64,000 nucleotides of DNA. Origin: Alphaproteobacteria bacterium. Lineage in GTDB: Bacteria > Pseudomonadota > Alphaproteobacteria > SP197. Location: assembly GCA_964291265.2 (NCBI GenBank), contig OZ219747.1, positions 3,936,001-4,000,000 of the forward strand, written 5' to 3'. This document shows positions 14,420 to 37,065 of this stretch, one piece after another; position 1 is the stretch's first letter, and each line of letters opens with the position of its first letter. Made by a program: the position numbers and the translations under genes. Below the pieces are notes generated by a model. That model was given only the letters and a program-made list of their open reading frames with translations, was not told the DNA's origin and searched no databases.

Positions 14420-16338
14420 GTCGCGGTAGGGATGCGCATTGCTGCGCACCCCCCGCACAGATCCGGACATGGACGTTAATCCATCCGGCTCCTACCTCGG
14501 GTGCTTGACGGTAAACCGCTGGTCCGGCCATGGGTGGCGGATGGAGACGCGCGGCCAAAGAAGCTCGGTCATGCGCTCCAATCGCTTCCAGTCAAAGCAG
14601 TGGCGCTGGGAGCGGCGGCGGATCGCTCGCAGCCATAGGCGTTGCAGCCTTTGGCGGAACGTGCGCAGCCATCGGGTCGACCCCGGAACGGCGAAGTAGT
14701 TGGACCAGCCATTGACAACTCGCCCAAGCCACATGCCGACCTCCCATATGTCGTGATGCCGTCGATTGCGAAGCACCTCCTCGATGCGCGCCAGGGTCCT
14801 TGCGACCCGTTTTGCGACCGGCTTGCGACCAAGCCTGAAGCGTCCTCTCCGGGTCTCCGTGCAGAAGTGCGTGAAGCCCAGGAAGTCGAACGTCTCCGGC
14901 CTGCCCGCCCCGCGAGATCGCCGGTTCGCCTTGGCAAACCGTCCAAACTCAACGAGACGGGTCTTGTCCGGGTGAAGGGTGAGACCAAAGCGGTCCAGCC
15001 TCTCCCGAACGTCGCGAAGGTATGTCTCCGCATCCCGCTTATGCTGGAACCCGACCACAATATCGTCCGCGTAGCGGACAATGATCGCTTTACCGTTCGG
15101 AACCTTCGGACGCCATGCCTTGTGAAACCACAGATCGAGCACGTAGTGCAGAAACACGTTCGCCAGGCAGGGGCTGACAATGGCGCCCTGAGGCGTGCCC
15201 GCACCGGTGTCGCTCCATGATCCGTCGGTCATGACGCCAGCGTTCAGCCACTTGCGGATCAGACGGATCACCCGCCTGTCGCCAATGCGATGCTCCAGGA
15301 ACTTGATCAACCAATCCCTCGGGATTGTGTCGAAGTACCCCTGAATGTCCGCGTCGACTATCCAGTTGACCTTGCGCCGCTCGATCCCGAACGCCAGGGC
15401 GTCGAGAGCGTCATGCGCCCCTCGGCCCGGTCGGAACCCGTAGCTGAAGCCAAGGAACTCCACCTCATAAATCGGTGTCAGGATCACATCCACAACCGCC
15501 TTCTGGACGATCTTGTCCTCCAGTGCGGCAATCCCGAGCGGTCGTGTCCCGCCGTCCGGCTTGGGTATCTCAACCCGCCGAACCGGCGGCGCCCGGTACG
15601 CTCCCCCACGATGCAGGCGCGAGTGCAGATCAAGCAAGCGCTCGTCCAGACCCTCGCCATACGCCGCCCACGTCACGCCGTCGACACCTGCCGAGGCTTC
15701 CTTCTTCAAACCGAAGTAGGCCGCCCGGAGCGCGTCCGGCGTAATGTGATGGAAGAGTGCAGTGAGACGCTCCTTCGGGTTCCTCTCTGCAGCTTCCCGT
15801 ATCCGGTCCGCCGCCTGTGGCACACTTGCCCGACACTGCGTTCGGTGCGTGCTTTGGCGTCCCGGATTCCCCTTGGTTGAGGCCCTTTCCTCCAGCGACT
15901 CCGCAGAAGCTGACGCTCCCTTGTTCGCCGCCTTCACCGGTCTTACGGCCCCATCCGACTTCTTCAAACCGTTCCTCATAGGCTTCGGCTTTCTCCTTTC
16001 CCTACACGGTCCCGCCACGACAGGCGGGATAGTTCGAAGACCTCCCAGGGTCCCAACAGAAGGCGTGCGGACGTGCATGGGTTCTCCGACACCGCGGGGC
16101 TCGCCGACATCTCACCAAATCGATGCCTGCGATGTTGCCTTCGACCGATGCGAAAGCCTCGGCACCCCGAACAACGGACTTTTCGGTGCTCATTAGCCCT
16201 GCCCATCCGTACCGCTACCGACGCTTCGCCTGCCCCCTCGCGGGAACCGACGCACGGCTCGCGGAGAAACGTGGTTTGGTTACTCCTTCGTTTCAGGGGA
16301 CTTTCACCCCCTACCTTCCGCCAGTTCGCCTGGCACAC
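14420..16338 (-). mobile_element. Group II intron, full length, antisense to the IS66 transposase
   Basis: 5' GTGTGCC; domain V GAGCCGGATGGATTAACGTCCATGTCCGGATC; DVI hairpin ending CCCTACCGCGAC; putative EBS1 CGCAUC (16147-16152) pairs with IBS1 GATGCG (16339-16344). Confidence 0.92.
14492..15979 (-). CDS. ltrA: Group II intron reverse transcriptase/maturase without En domain
   Basis: IPKPDGGTRPLGI, SYGFRPGR, GTPQG, VRYADD, FDFLGF, X domain; stop abuts domain V; start uncertain. Confidence 0.92.
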   Translation of the reverse strand: MRNGLKKSDGAVRPVKAANKGASASAESLEERASTKGNPGRQSTHRTQCRASVPQAADRIREAAERNPKERLTALFHHITPDALRAAYFGLKKEASAGVDGVTWAAYGEGLDERLLDLHSRLHRGGAYRAPPVRRVEIPKPDGGTRPLGIAALEDKIVQKAVVDVILTPIYEVEFLGFSYGFRPGRGAHDALDALAFGIERRKVNWIVDADIQGYFDTIPRDWLIKFLEHRIGDRRVIRLIRKWLNAGVMTDGSWSDTGAGTPQGAIVSPCLANVFLHYVLDLWFHKAWRPKVPNGKAIIVRYADDIVVGFQHKRDAETYLRDVRERLDRFGLTLHPDKTRLVEFGRFAKANRRSRGAGRPETFDFLGFTHFCTETRRGRFRLGRKPVAKRVARTLARIEEVLRNRRHHDIWEVGMWLGRVVNGWSNYFAVPGSTRWLRTFRQRLQRLWLRAIRRRSQRHCFDWKRLERMTELLWPRVSIRHPWPDQRFTVKHPR

Positions 16339-17162
16339 CGCATCCAGTCCCTCAAGGCCTCGGGGCGCTCGCAGAAGGCCTGGCTGTGGACCGCGGTCAG
16401 CGCCGACTCCGTCTTCTTCCTTATCGACCCGTCACGCAGCACCCGGGTGGCCATGGTGCTGTTCGCCTCCACCGAAGGCACCGTCTTCCTTGTCTGCGAT
16501 CGCTACGCGGTCTACAGGAAACTGGAGCGTGAGCTTGATGGCAAGGTGATCCTCTGCCTTTGCTGGGCGCACTCCAGGCGCGATGTGATCGAGGCTGCGG
16601 CAGGCCAGGAGGGGCTGGAAGAGTGGTGCGACAAGTGGCTCGACAGGATCGCGCTGATCTACACACTGAATGGGCAACGGCTGAAGCACTACGATCCCGC
16701 ACGCAAGCGTCAGTCAGCGAGGTTCAATGCCCTGCAGAAGGACCTTCGTGCGGCTGTCGAGGCGCTGTTCAGGCAGGCTCAGGAGGAACTCGACGCCTTG
16801 CCCGAGGGTGCACGCGAAGCGAAGCCCTTGCGTTCCCTGATCCGTCACCGCGAGGGACTGTGCGTCTTTGTCGACCATCCCCAGGTGCCCATGGACAACA
16901 ACTTTGCCGAGAGAGCCCTCCGGGGTGCGGTGACCGCGAGAAAGCTGAGCTTCGGCTCCGACAGCGAGGAAGGCGCCGCCTTCACCGCCATCATGTACTC
17001 GGTCATCGGCACCCTTGCCATGAACAACATCAATGTTCGGCGCTGGCTTCATGAGTGGCTTGAGGCCTGCGCGCAGAACGGCGGCAAGCCGCCGGATGAC
17101 CTCGACCCGTGGCTGCCATGGTCGATGACCCCGGAGCGCCGACGGGACCTCATGGAACCGGG

Positions 17163-17507
17163 GTGATCGAGTGCCGTTACGACGGCCGTGACTTCACCGC
17201 GCACGAGATGGCGCTGCGCTCCCTGATCACCCAGCACCCCACCCGTGCGGCCATCGCCCGCGCCTTCTGCCGCAAGACCGGCTGGTACAAGCCCGACGGC
17301 GGCCTCAAGAACATGATGGCGAGTGTCACCTTCCTGGCCATGCACCGCGCTACACAGGCGCCGTCTACAAGGCGTCGGGTTGGATCCATGTCGGCACCAC
17401 CAAGGGGCGCGGACGCTACGATACGCACAGGAAACTCGACAAACCAAAAAAAGGACATCTGGCTGAGGCCTCTCCGCAAAGACTGGAAACTCATCCTCAA
17501 CCGGTGA
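17163..17507 (+). pseudogene. DUF4338-like passenger gene of the IS66, internally deleted
   Basis: RYDGRDFT..WYKPDGGLK N-terminus joined to TKGRGRYD..KKDIWLRPLRKDWK C-terminus. Confidence 0.6.
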
Positions 17508-17559
17508 ATATCACCAACAATCACTGCGCGACCGAACGCTTACGGCCATGGAAGAGGTC

Positions 17560-18400
17560 GCCTCAGGCCATGTTCTCGCGCTGGGTTCAGGAGAACTTCT
17601 TCAAGGACATGCGTGACGCCTGGAACCTTGACGCTCTGCCTGAGCATGGCTTCGAGACGCTCGATGACGACACCCTCGTGGTCAATCCGCACATGAGGAC
17701 CGTGGGCAAGGACATCCGTGAAGAACCAGGCGCGCCTCGCTCAGCTGCATGTGCGGATCGCCAGGGGGCAAGACAACGGACGCTCTCGCTGCCGAGGTCG
17801 GCGCCATCGAGGAGGACCTCGCCGAACTCAAGGAGCGCCGCTCGACCCTGGCCAGCCATGCCCGTCTCGGCGAACGTGCCGGCAGCAACAGGCCCGACAC
17901 CCTGCCACGAACTCAACACACCTCCTCATCGATCTCGTCCGCATGATCTGCCATCGCGCCGAAACCCGCATGATGGCCCCCGTGATCCGGGGAAAGGCGC
18001 GACCCAACACCGCGGTTCGCCGGCATCTCACCATAGCGATGCCTGCGATGTTGCCTTCGACCGTCGCGAAAGCCTCGGCACCCCGAACAACGAGCTTTTC
18101 GGTGCTCATGAGCCCTGCCCATCCGTACCGCTACCGACGCTTCGCCTGCCCCCTCGCGGGAACCGACGCACGGCTCGCGGAGAAACGTGGTTTGGTTACT
18201 CCTTCGTTCCGGGGGACTTTCACCCCCAACCTTCCGCCAGTTTGCCTTGTATGACCAGGCGCTTGCTTGCCCACGGGTGGCGGATGCTGGCCTTGGGCCG
18301 GTGGGCTGCGATAAGGTTCCTTCAGGCAATCCGAAAACGGTTGTCTCCGCCCGCCGCAGAAACCCATGACGATCCCGGCGCTCCCCCTTGAGGTCAAGTG
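17560..18400 (+). pseudogene. Degraded transposase of unassigned family, interrupted by an intron fragment
   Basis: MFSRWVQENFFKDMR..NLDAL..VVNP and LIDLVRMICHRAETRM in different frames. Confidence 0.5.
18004..18255 (-). mobile_element. Group II intron 5' fragment (domain I only)
   Basis: Close copy of 16086-16338 with no RT, DV or DVI. Confidence 0.85.
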
Positions 18401-22679: not shown

Positions 22680-23170
22680 TTGCGAAAAGCACCTTGTGAA
22701 CAGAAGCGGCGCAACTGACAACACCACGTCTCGCGGGAGCAGGCGGGCTTGAACGGTCGTCGTGGAAGATCCGAAGACCGCCGACATGACGCGGAGTGCA
22801 AAGGGCACGGTCGAGCATTCCGGAACGCACGTGAAGGCGAGGTCCGGGCTGAACCGCGGTATCCTCGCCACGAGCCGGGGTGAGTTGCGGACGACGCTTG
22901 CCTGCAAGGCTCCGCGCCTCGTCGCGGTGAACGCCGCGCATGACAGCCAGACGTGTGCGGCGTGCGGCACGGCTGACGCCGCCTCGCGTCCGGTGCAGAG
23001 GGCATTCACATGGGTGGCCTGAAGCCATGCGGACCTGAATGCGGCCCGCAACATCAGGCATCGGGGACTGGCGCATCTGCACGGGGATGGAGCGTTGCCG
23101 CCAGGCACTCCGATGATCCGTCAAACGGACCGCAGACTGGCGGCATGAGCCGTTCAGTCAACGATACAAG
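22680..23170 (+). mobile_element. 3' remnant of a tnpB element (RuvC-II/zinc finger/RuvC-III region, predicted omegaRNA, right end)
   Basis: VVED.KTADMTRSAKGTVE, SQTCAACG, ADLNAARNI; closely similar to 36540-37010. Confidence 0.8.
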
Positions 23171-23500
23171 TTCCAAACTCAGCCCCAAGCCGATACTGGC
23201 GGACTTCTTGATGGGCGCGTCGGGAACAGCGACTTGCAATGTGTTACCAAGTCCGCAGGCAAGAACGGTGACATTCGACAACTTCCTGAAGGCCTTCACG
23301 GTACGCAGGATCATGGTTCAAAGGCAAACACACGGCCCTGTGGGACCATCGTGGCAAAGGGTTTCGTGAACTGTCCGGCGCAGGCGCCCACATCGAGCGC
23401 GACACCATCTGTCGGAATGAAGGGCCGGGTCCGGGAGCACAGGTCCCGGTGATGCTGCCCTGCAGGAGCCTTCCAGAGATGGGCGAACCTAGTCATCCCT
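23171..23500 (-). pseudogene. FkbM-family methyltransferase fragment truncated at the tnpB right end
   Basis: VALDVGACAGQF..GRVFAFEP, then shifted-frame NVTVLACGLG. Confidence 0.6.
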
Positions 23501-30194: not shown

Positions 30195-30477
30195 TCCATT
30201 TCCTCATTCAGAACACCGGAACAGGCGCACGATCATGGTGCAATCCCTGGCTCCAGACAACCGCAGGCGGTGAGGGGGTCGTGTCTCTGCAGTTCTCCAG
30301 CGCATACTGAGAGAAGGATCCGTGCTGCACACGAAGAGCGTCTCCCCATGGGATTGGTTGGGTGATTGTATCGTTGACTGAAAGGCGATGTTGCGGGATG
30401 TGTTGCGGGATGATGCGCGTGTGGTTTGGGGCCGCCTGCTCCGCCTCACTAAACGGCCAATGGAGGGCCGACCGCGC

Positions 30478-31186
30478 ATGACGGACGATACCGAACACCG
30501 GCAGATTGTCTATCGGCTGCTTCCCGGGTCCCGGGAGAAGGCACGCAAGTTGGCTGCCCTTACGGACGCTTGCCGCTTCGTCTGGAACGCCATGCTCGAC
30601 CGGCTTCGAGCAACTCGTTGCCGCGGCGAGACTGGCGGGAGCGGAACGGCTGCCGAGCGTTTCGTTCTTCACGCTCGGCAAGGCATTCACACGGCTTCGC
30701 CGGTTTGCGCCGTGGTTGCAGGGGATGCCGTGTGCGCTTGAGCGCTCTGTCCTCCAGTACCAGGCGGGTGCGTGGCAACGATGTTTCAGGGGGCTGAGGC
30801 GGCCGCCCGAAATGCAAGCGGCGCGGGCATGACAGCGTGACGCTCCCGGACGCCATCCGCATCCTTCAGACGGCACGCTCCACGTTCAGGAAGATCGGGC
30901 CGATGACGCTGCGCCGCAGGGGAGGGAACCCATGCTCCGACGGCGTATCGGTCCGCGCCGTCATCAATCAGGCGGATTGACGGCACGTGGCATGCGATCC
31001 GCCCGCTGCAGGATGGCGGCTGTCGCGCACCGGCGACGATGGCGCCGTGACCGGCATCGACATGAACGTGGGCCAGGTGGCCACCAGCTTCATGCACCGG
31101 TGACGGACCGCCTCGAAGCGCGATGCCAGCGGTGGCAGCGCAGGATGTCGCGCGGCAGCAGGCGGCGTGAACGCACCCGCCGCCGC
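30478..31186 (+). pseudogene. tnpB: tnpB 5' part, frameshifted
   Basis: YRLLPGSREKARKLAALTDACRFVWN, SFFTLGKAFTRLR, RuvC-I VTGIDMNVGQ. Confidence 0.78.
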
Positions 31187-31254
31187 TGTTGATGGCTGCA
31201 TAGAACGGCGGGATTTCGGCGATTTGCCGCGCTTTGTCAGGGTCGTGTTTCTTC

Positions 31255-31293
31255 CCTGTTGTCAGGTCCTATTGTCACGTCCTGTTGTCGTGG
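31255..31293 (+). repeat. Three 13-bp-period tandem repeats CCT(A/G)TTGTC
   Basis: cctgttgtcaggt / cctattgtcacgt / cctgttgtcgtgg; a further copy at ~31339. Confidence 0.7.
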
Positions 31294-31540
31294 TTTGAGT
31301 GTTCGGCTGGTTGTCTCCCCGAGCGCCGCCCGTCTTTTCCTATTGTCGTTTTGGTCCGGTTCGGGTTGTTCCGTCGGCCTCTGCTTCGGTCTTGGTGACG
31401 GTTGCCGGGAGGGTTCCGGTTCCGAGGCACTCGCGGGATCGTCTGTCTTCCCTGTGGTCTGGGTCGCGTTGTCCGGTCCCGGGGCGGCGACTTTGCCGCC
31501 GCCCCGGGTGGATGCTAGATCGGCATCGAAAGAAAGAGCG

Positions 31541-32149
31541 ATGCGATGCCGGGCAGAGTTTTACCGACGCCCCCCGGCGCAGCACCCGGACGAGCCGGTC
31601 ACGGGGGACCGAACTCCCGTGTATTGTCGAGCCATTTTGCGTCCGGGTCCACCCCCGCTCTCGAGACGGATCGTGTGCACGACGGGACGACTGTTCAACT
31701 GCAAGCGGTGTCAGCGGCAGGTTGTTCTCTGCCGGTCGTGTGACCGGGGGCATGTGTATTGCTCCGATGAGTGCAGGGAATCGTCCCAGAGCGAGCAGCA
31801 CCGCGTGTCGCAGCGTCGCTATCAGAGCACGCCGAAGGGCTGTGAGGCGGGCCGTCGCCGTCAGGAGCGTTATCGGCGCCGCCAGGGGGACCGGGCGCGT
31901 GCGTTGAAGGCCATGGCGACGATGGTTGCCGAGATCATGGACACGCAGACGTCTGCTGTGGTGCTGCTTGGCGACGTTCCGGCGGTGTCTGGAGACGCCG
32001 GTTCCGAAGAAATCGTTACTGATCACCCTTCCCGACTGCTGCCGACCTCCCTACCTGCGGTTGTGAAGGCGCGAGAGCGGCGCGAATCGCCGCTTCGGTG
32101 CGCCCGGTGCGGACGGGTCGTGACGCATGTGGTGCTGAGGGACCCGTGA
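31541..32149 (+). CDS. Cys-rich (zinc-finger-like) hypothetical protein upstream of istA
   Basis: CKRC..CRSCDRGHVYCSDEC, basic helix, C-terminal CARC; start uncertain. Confidence 0.65.
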   Translation: MRCRAEFYRRPPAQHPDEPVTGDRTPVYCRAILRPGPPPLSRRIVCTTGRLFNCKRCQRQVVLCRSCDRGHVYCSDECRESSQSEQHRVSQRRYQSTPKGCEAGRRRQERYRRRQGDRARALKAMATMVAEIMDTQTSAVVLLGDVPAVSGDAGSEEIVTDHPSRLLPTSLPAVVKARERRESPLRCARCGRVVTHVVLRDP

Positions 32150-32181
32150 TGCGGCGTTGAGGAACCAGAGGGAGGGAGTTC

Positions 32182-33675
32182 ATGGCGATCGACGAGGACA
32201 CGCGGGCGACGATCGTGCGGCTGTCGCGGGCCGAGGGCTGGGCTGTGGGGACGATTGCCCGGCATCTCGGCGTGCACCACGGCACGGTGACGCGGGCGCT
32301 CAAGGCGTCGGGGCAGGAGCGGCGGCCGCGGGCCAAGCTCATCGACCCCTTCGTTGCCTTCCTCGGGGAGCGTCTTGAGGCGTCGCCGGACCTTCCGGCC
32401 AGCACGCTCTGGCGACAGGTCGTGGCCCTGGGCTACCGCGGCGGCGAGGATCACTTCCGTCACGACCTGCGCCGCCTCGGGCTGAGGCCGGTGAAGAGGC
32501 CCGAGCCGTCGCTGCGGCTGAGCTTCCTTCCGGGCGAGCAGGCGCAGGTTGACTGGGCCGAGTTCGGGAAGGTCCGCATTGGCCGGGCGGAGCGCAGGCT
32601 CATGGGGCTTCTCGTCACCCTCAGCTACTCGCGCCAGACTGTCCTGAGCCTGTTCCACGACGCGCGGATGGCCAGCTTCCTGCAAGGCCATGTCGAGGCT
32701 TTCGCGGCATTCGGGGGTGTGCCGCGGAGGCTTCTGTACGACAACCTGAAGAGTGCCGTGGTGACGCGCCGCGGCAAGGCGGTCACCTATCATCCGATGC
32801 TGCTCGGCCTTGCGGCCCACTATGCCTTCGAACCGAGCGCCGCCTGGCCCAGGAGCCCGCAGGAGAAGGGCCGCGTGGAACGCCGTGTGCGCTTCGCGCG
32901 CACCGGGTTCTTCGCCGGGCGCGACATCACGGTCCCGCTCGGCGAGCTCAACGCCGCAGTTCGGGAGTGGTGCTTCGGCGCCGCCGCGGAGCGGCCCTGG
33001 CCGGACGACGACAGTCTCCTGGTGCGGGACGCCTTCGCCCGGGAGAGGGAGCACCTGATCGTCCTTCCCGTCGACCCCTTCCCGCATCACGAGGTCCGCC
33101 CGGTGCGCATCGACAAGACCTGCCACGCCCGCTTCGACACCAACGACTACAGCGTTCCGGGTAGCTTCTCCAAGGCCCTGCTGACGCTGGTCGCCGACCG
33201 CGACGAGGTTCGCATCCTCGACGGCGCCGACGAGGTCGCGCGCCACCGACGCTCCTACGACAGGAAGCAGGCCGTCACCGATCCGGAGCATGCCAGGGCG
33301 ATCGCCGCGGGCAAGCGGCGGGCCCGCTCCATGAGCGTCCGCGACCGGGTCCTGCGCACCGTGCCGCGGGCCGAGGAGATGCTGGCGCGCGCCGGGACCA
33401 ACGGGCGCAACGTGGCCTCCTGCGCCCGGATGCTGGAGACGCTTCTCAACGCGCACGGCGCCGACGCTCTCGACCGGGCTGTCGCCACGGCGCTGGAGCG
33501 CGGCTCGTGCCACCCCGAAACCGTGCGCGTCATCATCGAGGAGCGCCGCCGGGAGCAGGGCCTGCCGCCCCTCAGCATCGCCGACGACGGCCGCGGCGGC
33601 CGTGGCACGACGCCGCGGGGGACCGCTCTCGACGCCTACGACAGGCCCGAAGCCAGCGCCAGGAACAAGACATGA
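32182..33675 (+). CDS. istA: IS21-family transposase IstA
   Basis: N-terminal HTH; DDE at QVDW, YDNLKS, EKGRVE; GGAG RBS. Confidence 0.93.
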   Translation: MAIDEDTRATIVRLSRAEGWAVGTIARHLGVHHGTVTRALKASGQERRPRAKLIDPFVAFLGERLEASPDLPASTLWRQVVALGYRGGEDHFRHDLRRLGLRPVKRPEPSLRLSFLPGEQAQVDWAEFGKVRIGRAERRLMGLLVTLSYSRQTVLSLFHDARMASFLQGHVEAFAAFGGVPRRLLYDNLKSAVVTRRGKAVTYHPMLLGLAAHYAFEPSAAWPRSPQEKGRVERRVRFARTGFFAGRDITVPLGELNAAVREWCFGAAAERPWPDDDSLLVRDAFAREREHLIVLPVDPFPHHEVRPVRIDKTCHARFDTNDYSVPGSFSKALLTLVADRDEVRILDGADEVARHRRSYDRKQAVTDPEHARAIAAGKRRARSMSVRDRVLRTVPRAEEMLARAGTNGRNVASCARMLETLLNAHGADALDRAVATALERGSCHPETVRVIIEERRREQGLPPLSIADDGRGGRGTTPRGTALDAYDRPEASARNKT

Positions 33676-34373
33676 GCGAGCTCAGGGAGCGTGCCCGGGC
33701 GCTCGGCCTCCACGGGCTCGTCGAACGCTGGGACGAGGTCGCCGGGACCGCATGGATCGAGGAGGTGGTCAGCGGCGAGGAACAGGCCCGCAGGGCCCGC
33801 AGCCACGAGCGCCGCCGCGCCGCGGCGCGGCTGCCCGCCTTCAAGCCCCTGGCGGACTTCGACTGGACATGGCCGCGCGACATCAGCCGGGCTCATGTCG
33901 AAGCGCTCCTCGGCCTCGGCTTCGTCGACCGTGCGGACAACGCCGTGCTCGTCGGCGGGCAGGGCACCGGAAAGACCATGATCGCCGCCAACGTGGCGCA
34001 CCAGGCCCTGCTGCACGGCCACACCGTCCGCTTCGAGAAGGCGCCGGAACTGCTCGAGGCACTCGCCGAGACCGTCTCGCGCAGCGAGCTGCGCCGCCGC
34101 CTCGCGATCCTCGCCAGGCCCCGCCTGCTCATCCTCGACGAAATCGGCTACGTGACCCTCGAAAGCCACCATGCCGACATCCTCTACGCCATCGTCTCGC
34201 GGCGCTATCAGCGCCGCTCGACCATGGTCACGACAAGCCTCGCCTTCGCCCAGTGGGACCGCGTCTTCCCCAGCGCCTCCGGCATCGCCGGCACCGTCGA
34301 CCGGCTCATGCACGACGCAACCCTCATCTCCATCGACAGCGACTCCTGGCGGCTCAGGCGTGAAACCCGATAA
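33672..34373 (+). CDS. istB: IS21-family helper ATPase IstB
   Basis: DFDW, Walker A GGQGTGKT, Walker B LILDEIGY, DRLMH; ATGA coupling to istA. Confidence 0.92.
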   Translation: MSELRERARALGLHGLVERWDEVAGTAWIEEVVSGEEQARRARSHERRRAAARLPAFKPLADFDWTWPRDISRAHVEALLGLGFVDRADNAVLVGGQGTGKTMIAANVAHQALLHGHTVRFEKAPELLEALAETVSRSELRRRLAILARPRLLILDEIGYVTLESHHADILYAIVSRRYQRRSTMVTTSLAFAQWDRVFPSASGIAGTVDRLMHDATLISIDSDSWRLRRETR

Positions 34374-35253
34374 ACCCCGCCGCGTCGACTTCGACGCCGT
34401 CAAGCGCATGCCGTTCGAACGCATCGCCGCCGACTGGGGATACGTCCGCGACGAACAGGCCTCGACACGCGCCAACCCCGTCCTGTGCGCACCCGGCCTG
34501 CCGAAGCTCGTCACGAAGTGCCTCAACAACGGACACTGGGTCTACTTCAACACCCAGAACGATGAAGACAACGGAACCGTCATCGACTTCATGCTCAACC
34601 GCGGACTGGCCTTCGCCGACATCTGCACCCGCTTCACAGCACCCGACACCGCGCCACGCGACTTCCGCAGCCTCTGGGCCGCGGCAACGCCCGATGCGGC
34701 CCCGGACTGGCTCACCGGGCGCGGCATCCTCCCGGAGACCCTCGACACCTGCCGCCCCCTGGTCCGCCGCGACCACAACGGACGCGTCCTCTTCGCCCAT
34801 CGCAACAGGAAGCGAAAGCTCACCGGCTTCGAGATCGGTCCCCCCGACGGACCGAAACGCTTCGCCACCGGTGGAACCCGAAGCCTGTTCGCCGTCCGCG
34901 CCGGAACCGCCGCGGACCTCGAGGCCCTCGTCATCACCGAAAGCGCCGTCGACGCCCTCAGCCTGGCCCAGATCGACCAATGTCCCCCCAGCCACGCCTT
35001 CCTCTCCACCGCCGGGGCACCCTCGCGAAGACAGCACGAACAGATCAGCCTCGCCGCAAGCAGCCTGCCCAACGTCAGGACCATCGTCCTCGCCCAGGAC
35101 CACGACGAGGCCGGAGAGCGACAGGCCGAAACCCTGCGCAAAAAGATGAAGCTCCCCTCCCACGTCTCGTTCCACAGACGCAGACCGCCGGAAAACGCCG
35201 ACTGGAACGACGTCGTCAACGCCAGGACCAAAGAACCACAAGCGAGATCATGA
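34360..35253 (+). CDS. DUF3991-TOPRIM primase-like protein
   Basis: YFN..DNGTVIDF, WLTGRGI, ITESAVDALS (catalytic E), AQDHDEAG (DxD), DWND. Confidence 0.8.
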   Translation: MKPDKPRRVDFDAVKRMPFERIAADWGYVRDEQASTRANPVLCAPGLPKLVTKCLNNGHWVYFNTQNDEDNGTVIDFMLNRGLAFADICTRFTAPDTAPRDFRSLWAAATPDAAPDWLTGRGILPETLDTCRPLVRRDHNGRVLFAHRNRKRKLTGFEIGPPDGPKRFATGGTRSLFAVRAGTAADLEALVITESAVDALSLAQIDQCPPSHAFLSTAGAPSRRQHEQISLAASSLPNVRTIVLAQDHDEAGERQAETLRKKMKLPSHVSFHRRRPPENADWNDVVNARTKEPQARS

Positions 35254-35570
35254 CCACGTCCGTCACAAGGAGACCACTCATGCCCCTCACGCCCGCCGAA
35301 AAGCAGCGGCGATACCGGGAACGGCGCAAGGCCGGCATCCCTCCCGTCCACACCCCAAAGCACCGTGACCGGCGCTCGCGACCGCAACGCTGGAACGACG
35401 CCGTGGCCGAACTGCGCGCCCTGCAGGACGAATGGCGTGACCGCCTCGACAGCATCCCCGAAAGCCTCCGTGACACGCCTTACGGAGAACGCCTGCAGAG
35501 CGTCGCCGATGCCGACATCGAGGCCCTCGAGGACATCGAACCGCCACGCGGCTACGGAAGGGATACGTGA
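35250..35570 (+). CDS. Small basic/helical hypothetical protein
   Basis: LTPAEKQRRYRER..RSRPQRW..PPRGYGRD; ATGA coupling to the TOPRIM gene. Confidence 0.7.
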   Translation: MTTSVTRRPLMPLTPAEKQRRYRERRKAGIPPVHTPKHRDRRSRPQRWNDAVAELRALQDEWRDRLDSIPESLRDTPYGERLQSVADADIEALEDIEPPRGYGRDT

Positions 35571-36140
35571 TCCCGCAAGACCCTTGAACGCGGTCACGCG
35601 TTACCATCCAGGAATGAGAACGTCTCACCCCGACGCGCCGCTCAGCCTCCCCGGGAAACTCCCGGGCCGTCCAAACGACACCGCATCACGAGACTGCCGC
35701 AGCCGCTGGCCGGACTGGCTTACAGGTCGCAGCATCCGCCCGAAAACACTCGACGCCTGCCGCACCCTGCAGGACGAATGGCGTGACCGCCTCGACAGCA
35801 TCCCCGAAACCCTCCGTGACACGCCTTACGGAGAACGCCTGCAGATCGTCGCCGATGCCGACATCGAGGCCCTCGAGGACATCGAACCGCCACGCGGCTA
35901 CGGAAGGGATACGTGATCCCGCAAGACCCTTGAACGCGGTCACGCGTTACCATCCAGGAATGAGAACGTCTCACCCCGACGCGCCGCTCAGCCTCCCCGG
36001 GAAACACCCAGGCCGTCCAAGCGACACCGCATCACGAGACTGCCGCAGCCTCTGAGCCGCAGAAACGCCCGATCCGCCGCCGGGCTGGCTCACAGGTCGC
36101 AGCATCCGCCCGAAAACACTCGACGCCTGCCGCACCCTGC
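35421..36140 (+). repeat. Near-identical tandem duplication, period 346 bp, running into a degenerate partial copy of the TOPRIM gene (to ~36320)
   Basis: CTGCAGGACGAATGG.. starts at 35421 and 35767; 36020-36320 resembles parts of 34640-35200. Confidence 0.85.
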
Positions 36141-36510
36141 GCCGCCGCCACCGCAACGCACGCAGCCTCTTCGCCCAGCGCAACAGAAACCGTCAGCTCT
36201 CCAGCCTCGAGATCGTCCCGCCCGACGAACCACGACGAGGACGGAGAACGCCAGAACAAGACCCCGCGCAAAAGCCTGAAGCTCCCCTCCCACATCACGT
36301 TCCACAAACGCCGACCGAAACGACATCGTCACAACGTCAACGTCAACGCAAGACCAATGGGATCCAACAATAGGCAGAAAGCAAAGACCGGGCGGACCTT
36401 CGTCCAATGCCGCACGTTCTCCTGTCGTGATCACCCACTCACACGATCAGCGCTCAAAAGAGCGGTTCTCCGCCAATATCCCGCCGTTCTAAATCGCCGC
36501 CGACAGCCGC

Positions 36511-36988
36511 CATGCCCGGACGGTGTGCAGGATGGCCATGAAACGGTGCAACCGGCAGCACCACGTCTCGCGGAAGCTGGCCGGCGGAACGGTCGTCGTG
36601 GAAGGTCCGAAGACCGCCAACATGACCAGGAGTGCAAAGGGCACGGTCGAGCATCCCGGGACGAACGTGAAGGCGAAGTCCGGGCTGAACCGCGGGATCC
36701 TCACCACCGTCTGGTGTTGAGTTGCGGGCGATGCTCGCCTGCAAGGCTCCACGCCTCGTCTGAGGTGAACGCGGCGCATGTCAGCCAGACGTGTGCGGAG
36801 TGCAACAACGACTTGACGCCGCCTCGCGTCCGTCGCAGGCGACATTCACATGCGTGGCCTCATGCCATGCGGACCTGAATGCGGCCCGCAACATCAGGCG
36901 CCGGGGACTGGCGCATCTGCACGGGGATGGAGCGTTGCCGCCAGGCACTCCGATGATCCGTGACACGGATCGCAGACTGGCGGCATGA
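36511..36988 (+). pseudogene. tnpB: tnpB 3' part with overlapping predicted omegaRNA
   Basis: HHVSRKL..VVEG.KTANMTRSAKGTVE, SQTCAEC, ADLNAARNIRRRG in shifting frames. Confidence 0.8.
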
Positions 36989-37065
36989 GCCTTTCAGTCA
37001 ACGATACAAGCTTCTGGTCAGTGACGGCCGGAGTGCCGTCAGCATGTGATCCACGTGCCGGATTT

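Follow-up and report, generated by a model that had tools for sequence, protein, structure and literature searches.

The window, a 64,000-nucleotide stretch of an alphaproteobacterial genome, holds a decayed tnpB unit with IS1595-type ends (30361-37014), which is 1,330 bp long after removal of a 5,319-bp IS21 insert. In our preferred reading, to which we give a probability of about 0.7, this is a tnpB-only element that was mobilised in trans, with an omegaRNA at its right end, flanking DNA as guide and retention through TnpB. Its parts, and a second copy, are:

22695-23174 (+): second copy, comprising a tnpB 3′ fragment, the omegaRNA region and the right repeat (23149-23174)
30352-30360 (+): the 8 bases at the left-duplication position, ATTGGTTG, placed by the family pattern and preceded by a G at 30352 that probably belongs to the TAM
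30361-30386 (+): left terminal inverted repeat (TIR), about 26 bp, IS1595 type, including the 21-mer 30366-30386
30478-31186 (+): 5′ part of the tnpB pseudogene, with several frameshifts and a HTH_OrfB_IS605 match
31187-36505 (+): IS21-family element inside tnpB, flanked by a 5-bp duplication (GCCGC); its genes are istA (32182-33675), istB (33672-34373) and a Toprim-domain passenger ending at 35253
36506-36988 (+): 3′ part of the tnpB pseudogene, up to the stop codon
36898-37014 (+): predicted omegaRNA scaffold of ISDra2 architecture, with stem 1, stem 2 and a terminal pairing that is partly decayed
36989-37014 (-): right TIR, its outer five bases decayed; the family consensus end is CAAGTCCC on the + strand

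The borders were largely as given in the preliminary description. The 21-mer at 30366-30386 (+) recurs as its exact reverse complement at 36989-37009, with any match found in 0 of 100 shuffles. The tnpB start, placed about 110 bp after the left 21-mer, is at 30478, 112 bp past 30366, and the ~1.3-kb unit left without the insert (1,330 bp) has no transposase inside. Perfect 21-bp TIRs do bound the window copy, but the repeat reaches a further 5 bp outward, ending at 30361 and at 37014 (23174 in the second copy). In the family as a whole the terminal repeat is about 26 bp, imperfect and begins with GG, the perfect 21 bp being peculiar to the window copy. Divergence of the flanks after CAAG was confirmed for the two window copies only; 32 of 44 right ends go on with CAAGTCCC. 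The second copy does have the right end with one mismatch (23149-23169), but consists of no more than a 3′ fragment of about 480 bp and lacks a left end.

As had been noted, tnpB is a pseudogene in both window copies. The window copy has no target duplication, again in line with the earlier account: 0 of 8 bases agree in register, and ATTGGTTG from its left side has no repeat at its right end. A search for its empty site in 14 genomes of the same genus found the left-flank gene in 9, and the right flank at none of these 9 loci. The exact 21-mer was found at one locus in a collection of genome contigs, and the contigs of four sequencing runs gave only loose ends at the element borders. The IS21 element is present in 30 full-length copies in this genome. 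All of its tnpB copies and both of its IS1595 transposases, which have methyltransferase-like ORFs downstream, are decayed, and the tnpB system appears to be extinct here.

In relatives of the window copy TnpB is intact, and the units have the same ends together with target duplications of 8 bp. Unit boundaries were set by a profile scan of the ends. Among 47 two-ended units the duplication was perfect in 19 and matched at 6 or more of 8 positions in 29; the 18 units below 6/8 include false pairings (L082 and L182). Empty sites are known for three insertions, with a single copy of the 8-mer at 5/5, 4/5 and 4/4 of the relatives' loci examined. At strict cut-offs the family was matched in 2 of 401 genomes of the class and 1 of 401 of the phylum (own genome counted), and a clear end lay beside tnpB in one of 51 metagenome loci (L082).

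The protein was assigned to TnpB by NF040570 (190 bits, cut-off 100) and Pfam TnpB domains, the window copies being broken. The RuvC residues D, E and D were present in 36, 37 and 37 of 37 relatives. An arginine occupies the column of the ISDra2 TAM reader Q80 in 35 of 37, and at the column of K76, the residue with which ISDra2 TnpB reads the G of its TAM, conservation is lacking (C, V, Y or F). The TnpB tree was a quick one, in which three of the 37 TIR-bound rows are out of frame in part. TnpB subclades carry several different end subtypes, and therefore probably depend on several transposases.

The ends and the 8-bp duplication signature, both shared with IS1595, support the earlier proposal that a TIR-recognising enzyme mobilises this tnpB lineage in trans. 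Because the ends match, mobilisation in trans by an IS1595-family DDE transposase is the likely arrangement. A profile trained only on tnpB ends found the ends of IS1595 elements in the same genus, with scores up to 36.3 (training range 6-38) and no matches scoring at least 16 in 2 Mb of shuffled sequence; the best agreement was 22 of 23 bases. The partner transposase matches NF033547 (IS1595, E 1e-55), and the IS1595 transposases have DDE plus a K seven residues after the E. Duplication positions 2 and 7 are A/T in 29/29 and 28/29 tnpB units and in 21/22 and 22/22 IS1595 elements, and likewise in the ISEc69 experiment (PMC7835479). An 8-bp target duplication is reported for the IS1595 family (PMC8101967); the TIRs of the units resemble those of IS1595, and the duplication is found in family units and is lacking in the window copy. 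No unit carries a DDE_Tnp_IS1595 transposase, and none of the 22 delimited autonomous IS1595 elements carries tnpB. The two genes lie within 10 kb of each other only in L232, where they belong to separate units. Of 23 genomes of the genus, 17 have IS1595 transposases; at the same cut-off none was found in G016 and G012, two genomes with tnpB units.

Pairing counts support the suggestion that the right TIR doubles as the 3′ end of the omegaRNA. The loop of stem 1, GGGAC (36904-36908), would pair with the last five bases of the element, and the last five bases of the right repeat are predicted to close an ISDra2-like pseudoknot. The three predicted helices are 97.4% paired, with 20 cells changed on both sides, against 22-43% in slid controls. 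Covariation in the pseudoknot is thin, both sides having changed in 2 of 33 rows, and the RNA overlaps coding sequence. Ends starting with GGGAC made up 32/44 right ends, compared with 2/44 left ends and 3/44 IS1595 ends. An Rfam search of the predicted omegaRNA region gave no match.

The tnpB insertions also differ from IS1595 in their flanks. The base outside the left duplication (position -1) is G in 27 of 28 tnpB insertions and in 6 of 22 IS1595 elements (Fisher p about 2e-7, for insertions that stem from related genomes and so are not wholly independent of each other). This count leaves out the 18 of 47 units with less than a 6/8 duplication (including L082 and L182), as well as L183, which shares its site with L045. 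As controls, G was found at 12 of 44 IS1595 sides and at 12 of 28 on the mirror side of the tnpB insertions. The bias holds in two genera of different families (21/22 and 6/6), and over all 44 usable units G is present in 35. The exception is a T in the well-supported insertion L003/L051. The motif at this place is G, mostly TG, and the bias is likely the imprint of a TAM. By analogy with ISDra2, the TAM would consist of (T)G and the first one or two duplicated bases. Its register is predicted at -3 from the pseudoknot and at -2 from the arginine; the two disagree because K76 is not conserved.

We suggest that an IS1595 transposase would insert the unit at AT-edged 8-mers, indifferent to G, and that only copies landing beside a G would leave an empty site with a TAM for TnpB. 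The right end would act as omegaRNA scaffold, extending into the right duplication by one or two bases as in ISDra2, and the flanking host DNA would be the guide. TnpB would then cut empty alleles, either after precise loss between the duplications (the assumed source of empty sites) or in incoming DNA, and recombination after cutting would restore the element, so that copies without G would be lost faster. Retention driven by TnpB has been shown for IS200/IS605 (bioRxiv 2023.03.14.532601).

The same IS1595 shell could instead be guided at insertion, with TnpB and its RNA binding the TAM and steering a borrowed transposase to the next 8 bases. A bias as near to complete as 27/28 speaks for this, since under retention it demands strong loss of all other insertions, and so does the conserved arginine at the TAM-reading position. 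The dead copies of this genome, which share frameshifts (e.g. a +1 at five or six sites), are still flanked by G; retention would then require that selection acted through an intact copy in trans, or that gene conversion spread the lesions afterwards. However, both genes occur together in 0 of 22 elements, and a specific protein contact is hard to reconcile with several end subtypes and probably several transposases. The nuclease site is also intact, in contrast to the known targeting effectors, in which, to our knowledge, it is not. We regard steering as unlikely. If true, it would be a loose, plug-in form of nuclease-directed transposition working with several IS1595 end subtypes. Also unlikely is an explanation in which tnpB is near-neutral cargo and the G reflects a one-sided target preference, either of an IS1595 transposase that was not sampled or of the altered ends. 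It gains from the small comparison set (22 delimited IS1595 elements, four with the closest end type) and from the several positions at which tnpB ends depart from autonomous ends, but the bias persists over end subtypes and two families, and catalytic residues and RNA pairing are kept across 46-100% protein identity.

An ordinary non-autonomous IS200/IS605 or IS607 element, with inverted ends arising by chance or from a nested inverted copy, is extremely improbable. The TnpB is itself ordinary, and a non-TIR relative (L084, 36%) adjoins a Y1 TnpA-like ORF. Against this stand the 8-bp duplications, the empty sites and ends that match IS1595; IS200/IS605 and IS607 have neither TIRs nor target duplications (PMC13565253), and the duplications, with TIRs also present, refute such an identity. 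No Y1 TnpA was found, with 0 matches to PF01797 in this 100%-complete genome. Other members do have the inverted left end, and the left 21-mer does not come from a separate inverted element, as the leader that it heads is also present in intact relatives with perfect duplications. An IS607-type GG core was ruled out by the inversion of GG between the ends and by the 8-bp duplication.

In outline, a solo TnpB in a DDE shell is already in print. Altae-Tran et al. 2023 described DDE-associated TnpB branches, DDE-1 to DDE-6, with solo TnpBs that have the same ends (PMC10691335). As here, TnpB lies between inverted repeats with its 3′ end near the transposon end; solo copies are mobilised in trans, which is likely for the present units too. 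In DDE-5 a motif likewise lies 8 bp upstream of the predicted end (PMC10691335 supplement), although that motif is TA and not (T)G. The main text of that paper has no match to IS1595 as a TnpB partner and its supplement has IS1595 only in a profile list; a 2026 review lists ISL2, IS630 and IS1031 as DDE partners. A search of the published literature at listing level returned no report on IS1595 with TnpB. DDE-5 or another DDE branch may be this lineage, or an IS1595 one.

Passenger-carrying IS1595 elements, which we take to be the ISNwi1-like group, share the ends, the AT-edged 8-bp duplication and the habit of carrying passenger genes. Unlike IS1595 elements, the tnpB unit lacks a transposase, has its right end altered to GGGAC and has the one-sided flanking G. 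With ISDra2 (IS200/IS605) and IS1341-type elements it shares the TnpB domains, the RuvC triad and, probably, mobilisation in trans, and the ISDra2 omegaRNA likewise overlaps the 3′ end of the gene, with the stem 1, loop-to-3′-end pseudoknot and stem 2 that are predicted here. In IS200/IS605 a single TAM is recognised by both TnpA and TnpB, and excision leaves no scar (bioRxiv 2023.03.14.532601), whereas the likely transposase here shows no G preference and makes a duplication. Fanzor1 nucleases of eukaryotic DDE transposons also lie between TIRs, with the 5′ duplication in the TAM and the 3′ duplication in the scaffold (PMC13565253); the same is predicted for one or two bases of the present units. 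Unlike Fanzor1, this system is bacterial, with an ordinary 400-aa TnpB, a pseudoknot that is predicted to be kept and a variable 8-bp duplication.

The copy in the window is a dead relic. Its intact relatives of 400 aa, whose TAM is probably very short, are candidates for a screen for editors, and their transposon end would have been remodelled to act at once as TIR and as RNA scaffold, as happens in Fanzor elements. The tnpB units bear directly on the open question of why a DDE transposon keeps TnpB. Because a single motif serves both transposase and TnpB in IS200/IS605, selection by TnpB is unreadable from genomes there. Here the likely transposase is indifferent to the flanking G, and the units would thus be a natural record of TnpB acting on the survival or the landing of the element.

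The tnpB unit in the window is a dead copy of a tnpB cassette enclosed in terminal inverted repeats (TIRs) of IS1595, a DDE transposase family. The 21-bp inverted repeat of the preliminary description was recovered at 30366-30386 and, as an exact reverse complement, at 36989-37009; shuffled sequences yielded no match. The inverted repeats were thus upheld and their exact limits were not, as conservation in the alignment of genome matches extends 5 bases further outward on both sides. The features are as follows.

30361-37014: whole unit, 1,330 bp without the IS21 insert, from the alignment of end copies
30478 (start) to 36988 (stop): frameshifted tnpB between the 21-mer repeats, interrupted by an IS21 element
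31187-36505: IS21-family element inside tnpB, 5.3 kb, with a 5-bp duplication

The second right end reported at 23149-23169, with one mismatch to the 21-mer, was also found, and belongs to a tnpB copy reduced to about 480 bp of its 3′ part, with the left end missing. No target duplication flanks the window copy, and none of the nine relatives' loci examined contained its empty site. The IS21-family element carries a passenger with a Toprim domain as well as a small-ORF region with an internal duplication (about 35280-35916). It has recently been very active, since the genome holds 30 full-length copies at 97% identity or more. Elsewhere in the window, an ORF at 14492-16078 (minus strand), listed as lying inside the region 16123-18391, resembles a group II intron reverse transcriptase and is near IS66-like transposase fragments (labels assigned by eye).

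The window's genome (4.83 Mb, two contigs, C1 and C2, 100% complete) contained 24 matches to the 21-mer with up to 4 mismatches. A profile of the ends gave 35 matches of at least 16 bits, 23 of them adjoining tnpB remnants, and none in 2 Mb of shuffled sequence. Six units possessed both ends. All tnpB copies were broken, 72-95% alike, and had frameshifts in common in a mosaic pattern. Both IS1595 transposases (C2:943600-946341 and 926338-927099) had Asn in place of a catalytic Asp that 53 of 54 and 54 of 55 aligned homologs retain. No Y1 TnpA, the IS200/IS605 transposase, was found in the genome, where the tnpB/IS1595 system looks extinct. DNA methyltransferase-like passenger ORFs follow both IS1595 transposases. 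An orphan left TIR (C2:1326417, minus strand) is joined to a dispersed repeat of roughly 105 bp, which has about 45 copies at 71-87% identity and also flanks the copies at C1:279161 and C2:892897. Another repeated end, present in seven copies (C1:97200, C2:53636 and five others), fitted the TIR profile weakly.

Intact relatives were found elsewhere. A locus from an Alphaproteobacteria bacterium MAG (L001), identical to one in the same-genus genome G001 and present in part in sequencing runs labelled sponge metagenome, encodes an intact TnpB of 400 aa (P0001). Among 7,998 candidates scored, 1,698 proteins had E ≤1e-30. Within the genus, 12 of 23 genomes contained TnpB relatives, as did 6 of 12 genomes from a genus of a different family. 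The TIR-bound TnpBs, including that of locus L082, formed one group in a quick tree (support 98), and the RuvC triad was kept in 36/37, 37/37 and 37/37 rows. An unrelated TnpB without a TIR match (loci L254/L186, G004:C1 about 1199600-1200800; 33-38% to P0001) sits just past the ortholog of the gene at the left flank of the window copy; each of the nine relatives examined differs in this region.

Flanking 8-bp duplications were perfect in 19 of the 47 two-ended units, matched at 7/8 in 6 and 6/8 in 4, and were poorer in 18. For three insertions, empty sites with a single 8-mer were present in relatives (5/5, 4/5 and 4/4 loci examined). Two loci, L156 (G423) and L162 (G429), had the left flank in common and different right flanks. 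This suggests a rearrangement at the element's end, which may explain absent duplications such as that of the window copy.

The end profile, trained on tnpB ends only, recovered the ends of same-genus IS1595 transposase elements with scores close to the training maximum, the best identity between the two being 22/23 bases. Requiring matching ends and a duplication of at least 6/8, we delimited 22 IS1595 elements in the loci together with 40 longer stretches of sequence, 20 of them with a perfect duplication. They were 2.2-7.8 kb long, exceeding the transposase alone, and none of the 22 contained tnpB. Duplications of 8 bp are the family norm (PMC8101967). Positions 2 and 7 of the duplication were nearly always A/T in both tnpB units and IS1595 elements, as found experimentally for ISEc69 (PMC7835479). 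Distinct TnpB subclades paired with distinct IS1595 end subtypes: the inner TIRs at L045, L160, L165 and L012 each matched a different IS1595 element (L141, L214, L242 and L138). This suggests repeated end swapping or co-divergence. The proposal of mobilisation in trans by a TIR-recognising enzyme is supported by the matching ends and duplications, from which we infer that IS1595 transposase probably moves the tnpB units.

Altae-Tran et al. 2023 (PMC10691335) described TnpBs in six DDE-associated branches (DDE-1 to DDE-6) that have inverted repeats, together with solo TnpBs moved in trans; in DDE-5 a TA motif precedes the end by 8 bp. A 2026 review (PMC13565253) names ISL2, IS630 and IS1031 and leaves open what DDE elements gain. 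Neither text lists IS1595 as a TnpB partner, though Figure 4, Table S1 and Additional Files 10-11 of the former may bear on the point, and no report of IS1595 with TnpB was found in the literature our search covered. The window element is a variant on this known DDE-shelled arrangement.

The tnpB insertions and IS1595 elements differed in the base directly 5′ of the left duplication, which was G in 27 of 28 tnpB insertions (TG in 15) and in 6 of 22 IS1595 elements (Fisher p 2e-7, a value inflated by kinship). The bias was seen in both genera (21/22 and 6/6), and G stood there in 35 of 44 usable units of any duplication quality. At the mirror position of the tnpB insertions G occurred in 12/28, and beside the duplication on both IS1595 sides in 12/44. 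If the flank past the right end is the guide, this is where the TnpB recognition motif (TAM) of the empty site must lie.

An alignment of 33 right ends predicted an omegaRNA with three helices: columns 15-19/27-31 would form a hairpin, its loop GGGAC would pair with the five bases that end the element, and columns 37-41/75-79 would form a second stem. Pairing reached 97.4%, with 20 cells altered on both sides (slid controls, 22-43%). RNAalifold independently recovered the two nested stems, and in L007, a locus absent from the alignment, both partners of the terminal pairing were changed. There was no match in Rfam. GGGAC began 32/44 right ends of units, 2/44 left ends and 3/44 IS1595 ends, the excess predicted if the RNA constrains the right end as well. 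By analogy with the reference system ISDra2, where bases -5 to -3 form a pseudoknot with the stem 1 loop (PMC10097598), the first two duplicated bases would complete the scaffold, and the TAM would consist of nTG and two further bases, resembling TTGAT. Counting against this register, K76, which reads the TAM G in ISDra2, is not kept in the TnpB rows here, and at Q80, which reads position -2, 35 of 37 rows have Arg instead.

Steering of insertion by TnpB to G-flanked sites, in favour of which count the nearly complete G bias and the retention of G in dead copies with common lesions, appears unlikely. Most likely, G-flanked copies are retained by TnpB after unbiased insertion. The transposase would insert at AT-edged 8-mers, and next to a G, TnpB would cut the matching empty allele and recombination would copy the element back, as shown for IS200/IS605 (bioRxiv 2023.03.14.532601). 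The filled site would offer TnpB just 6-8 matching bases, and loss would be faster for copies lacking the G. As judged from these flanks, the live relatives of the window copy carry what reads as a clear, testable TAM imprint.
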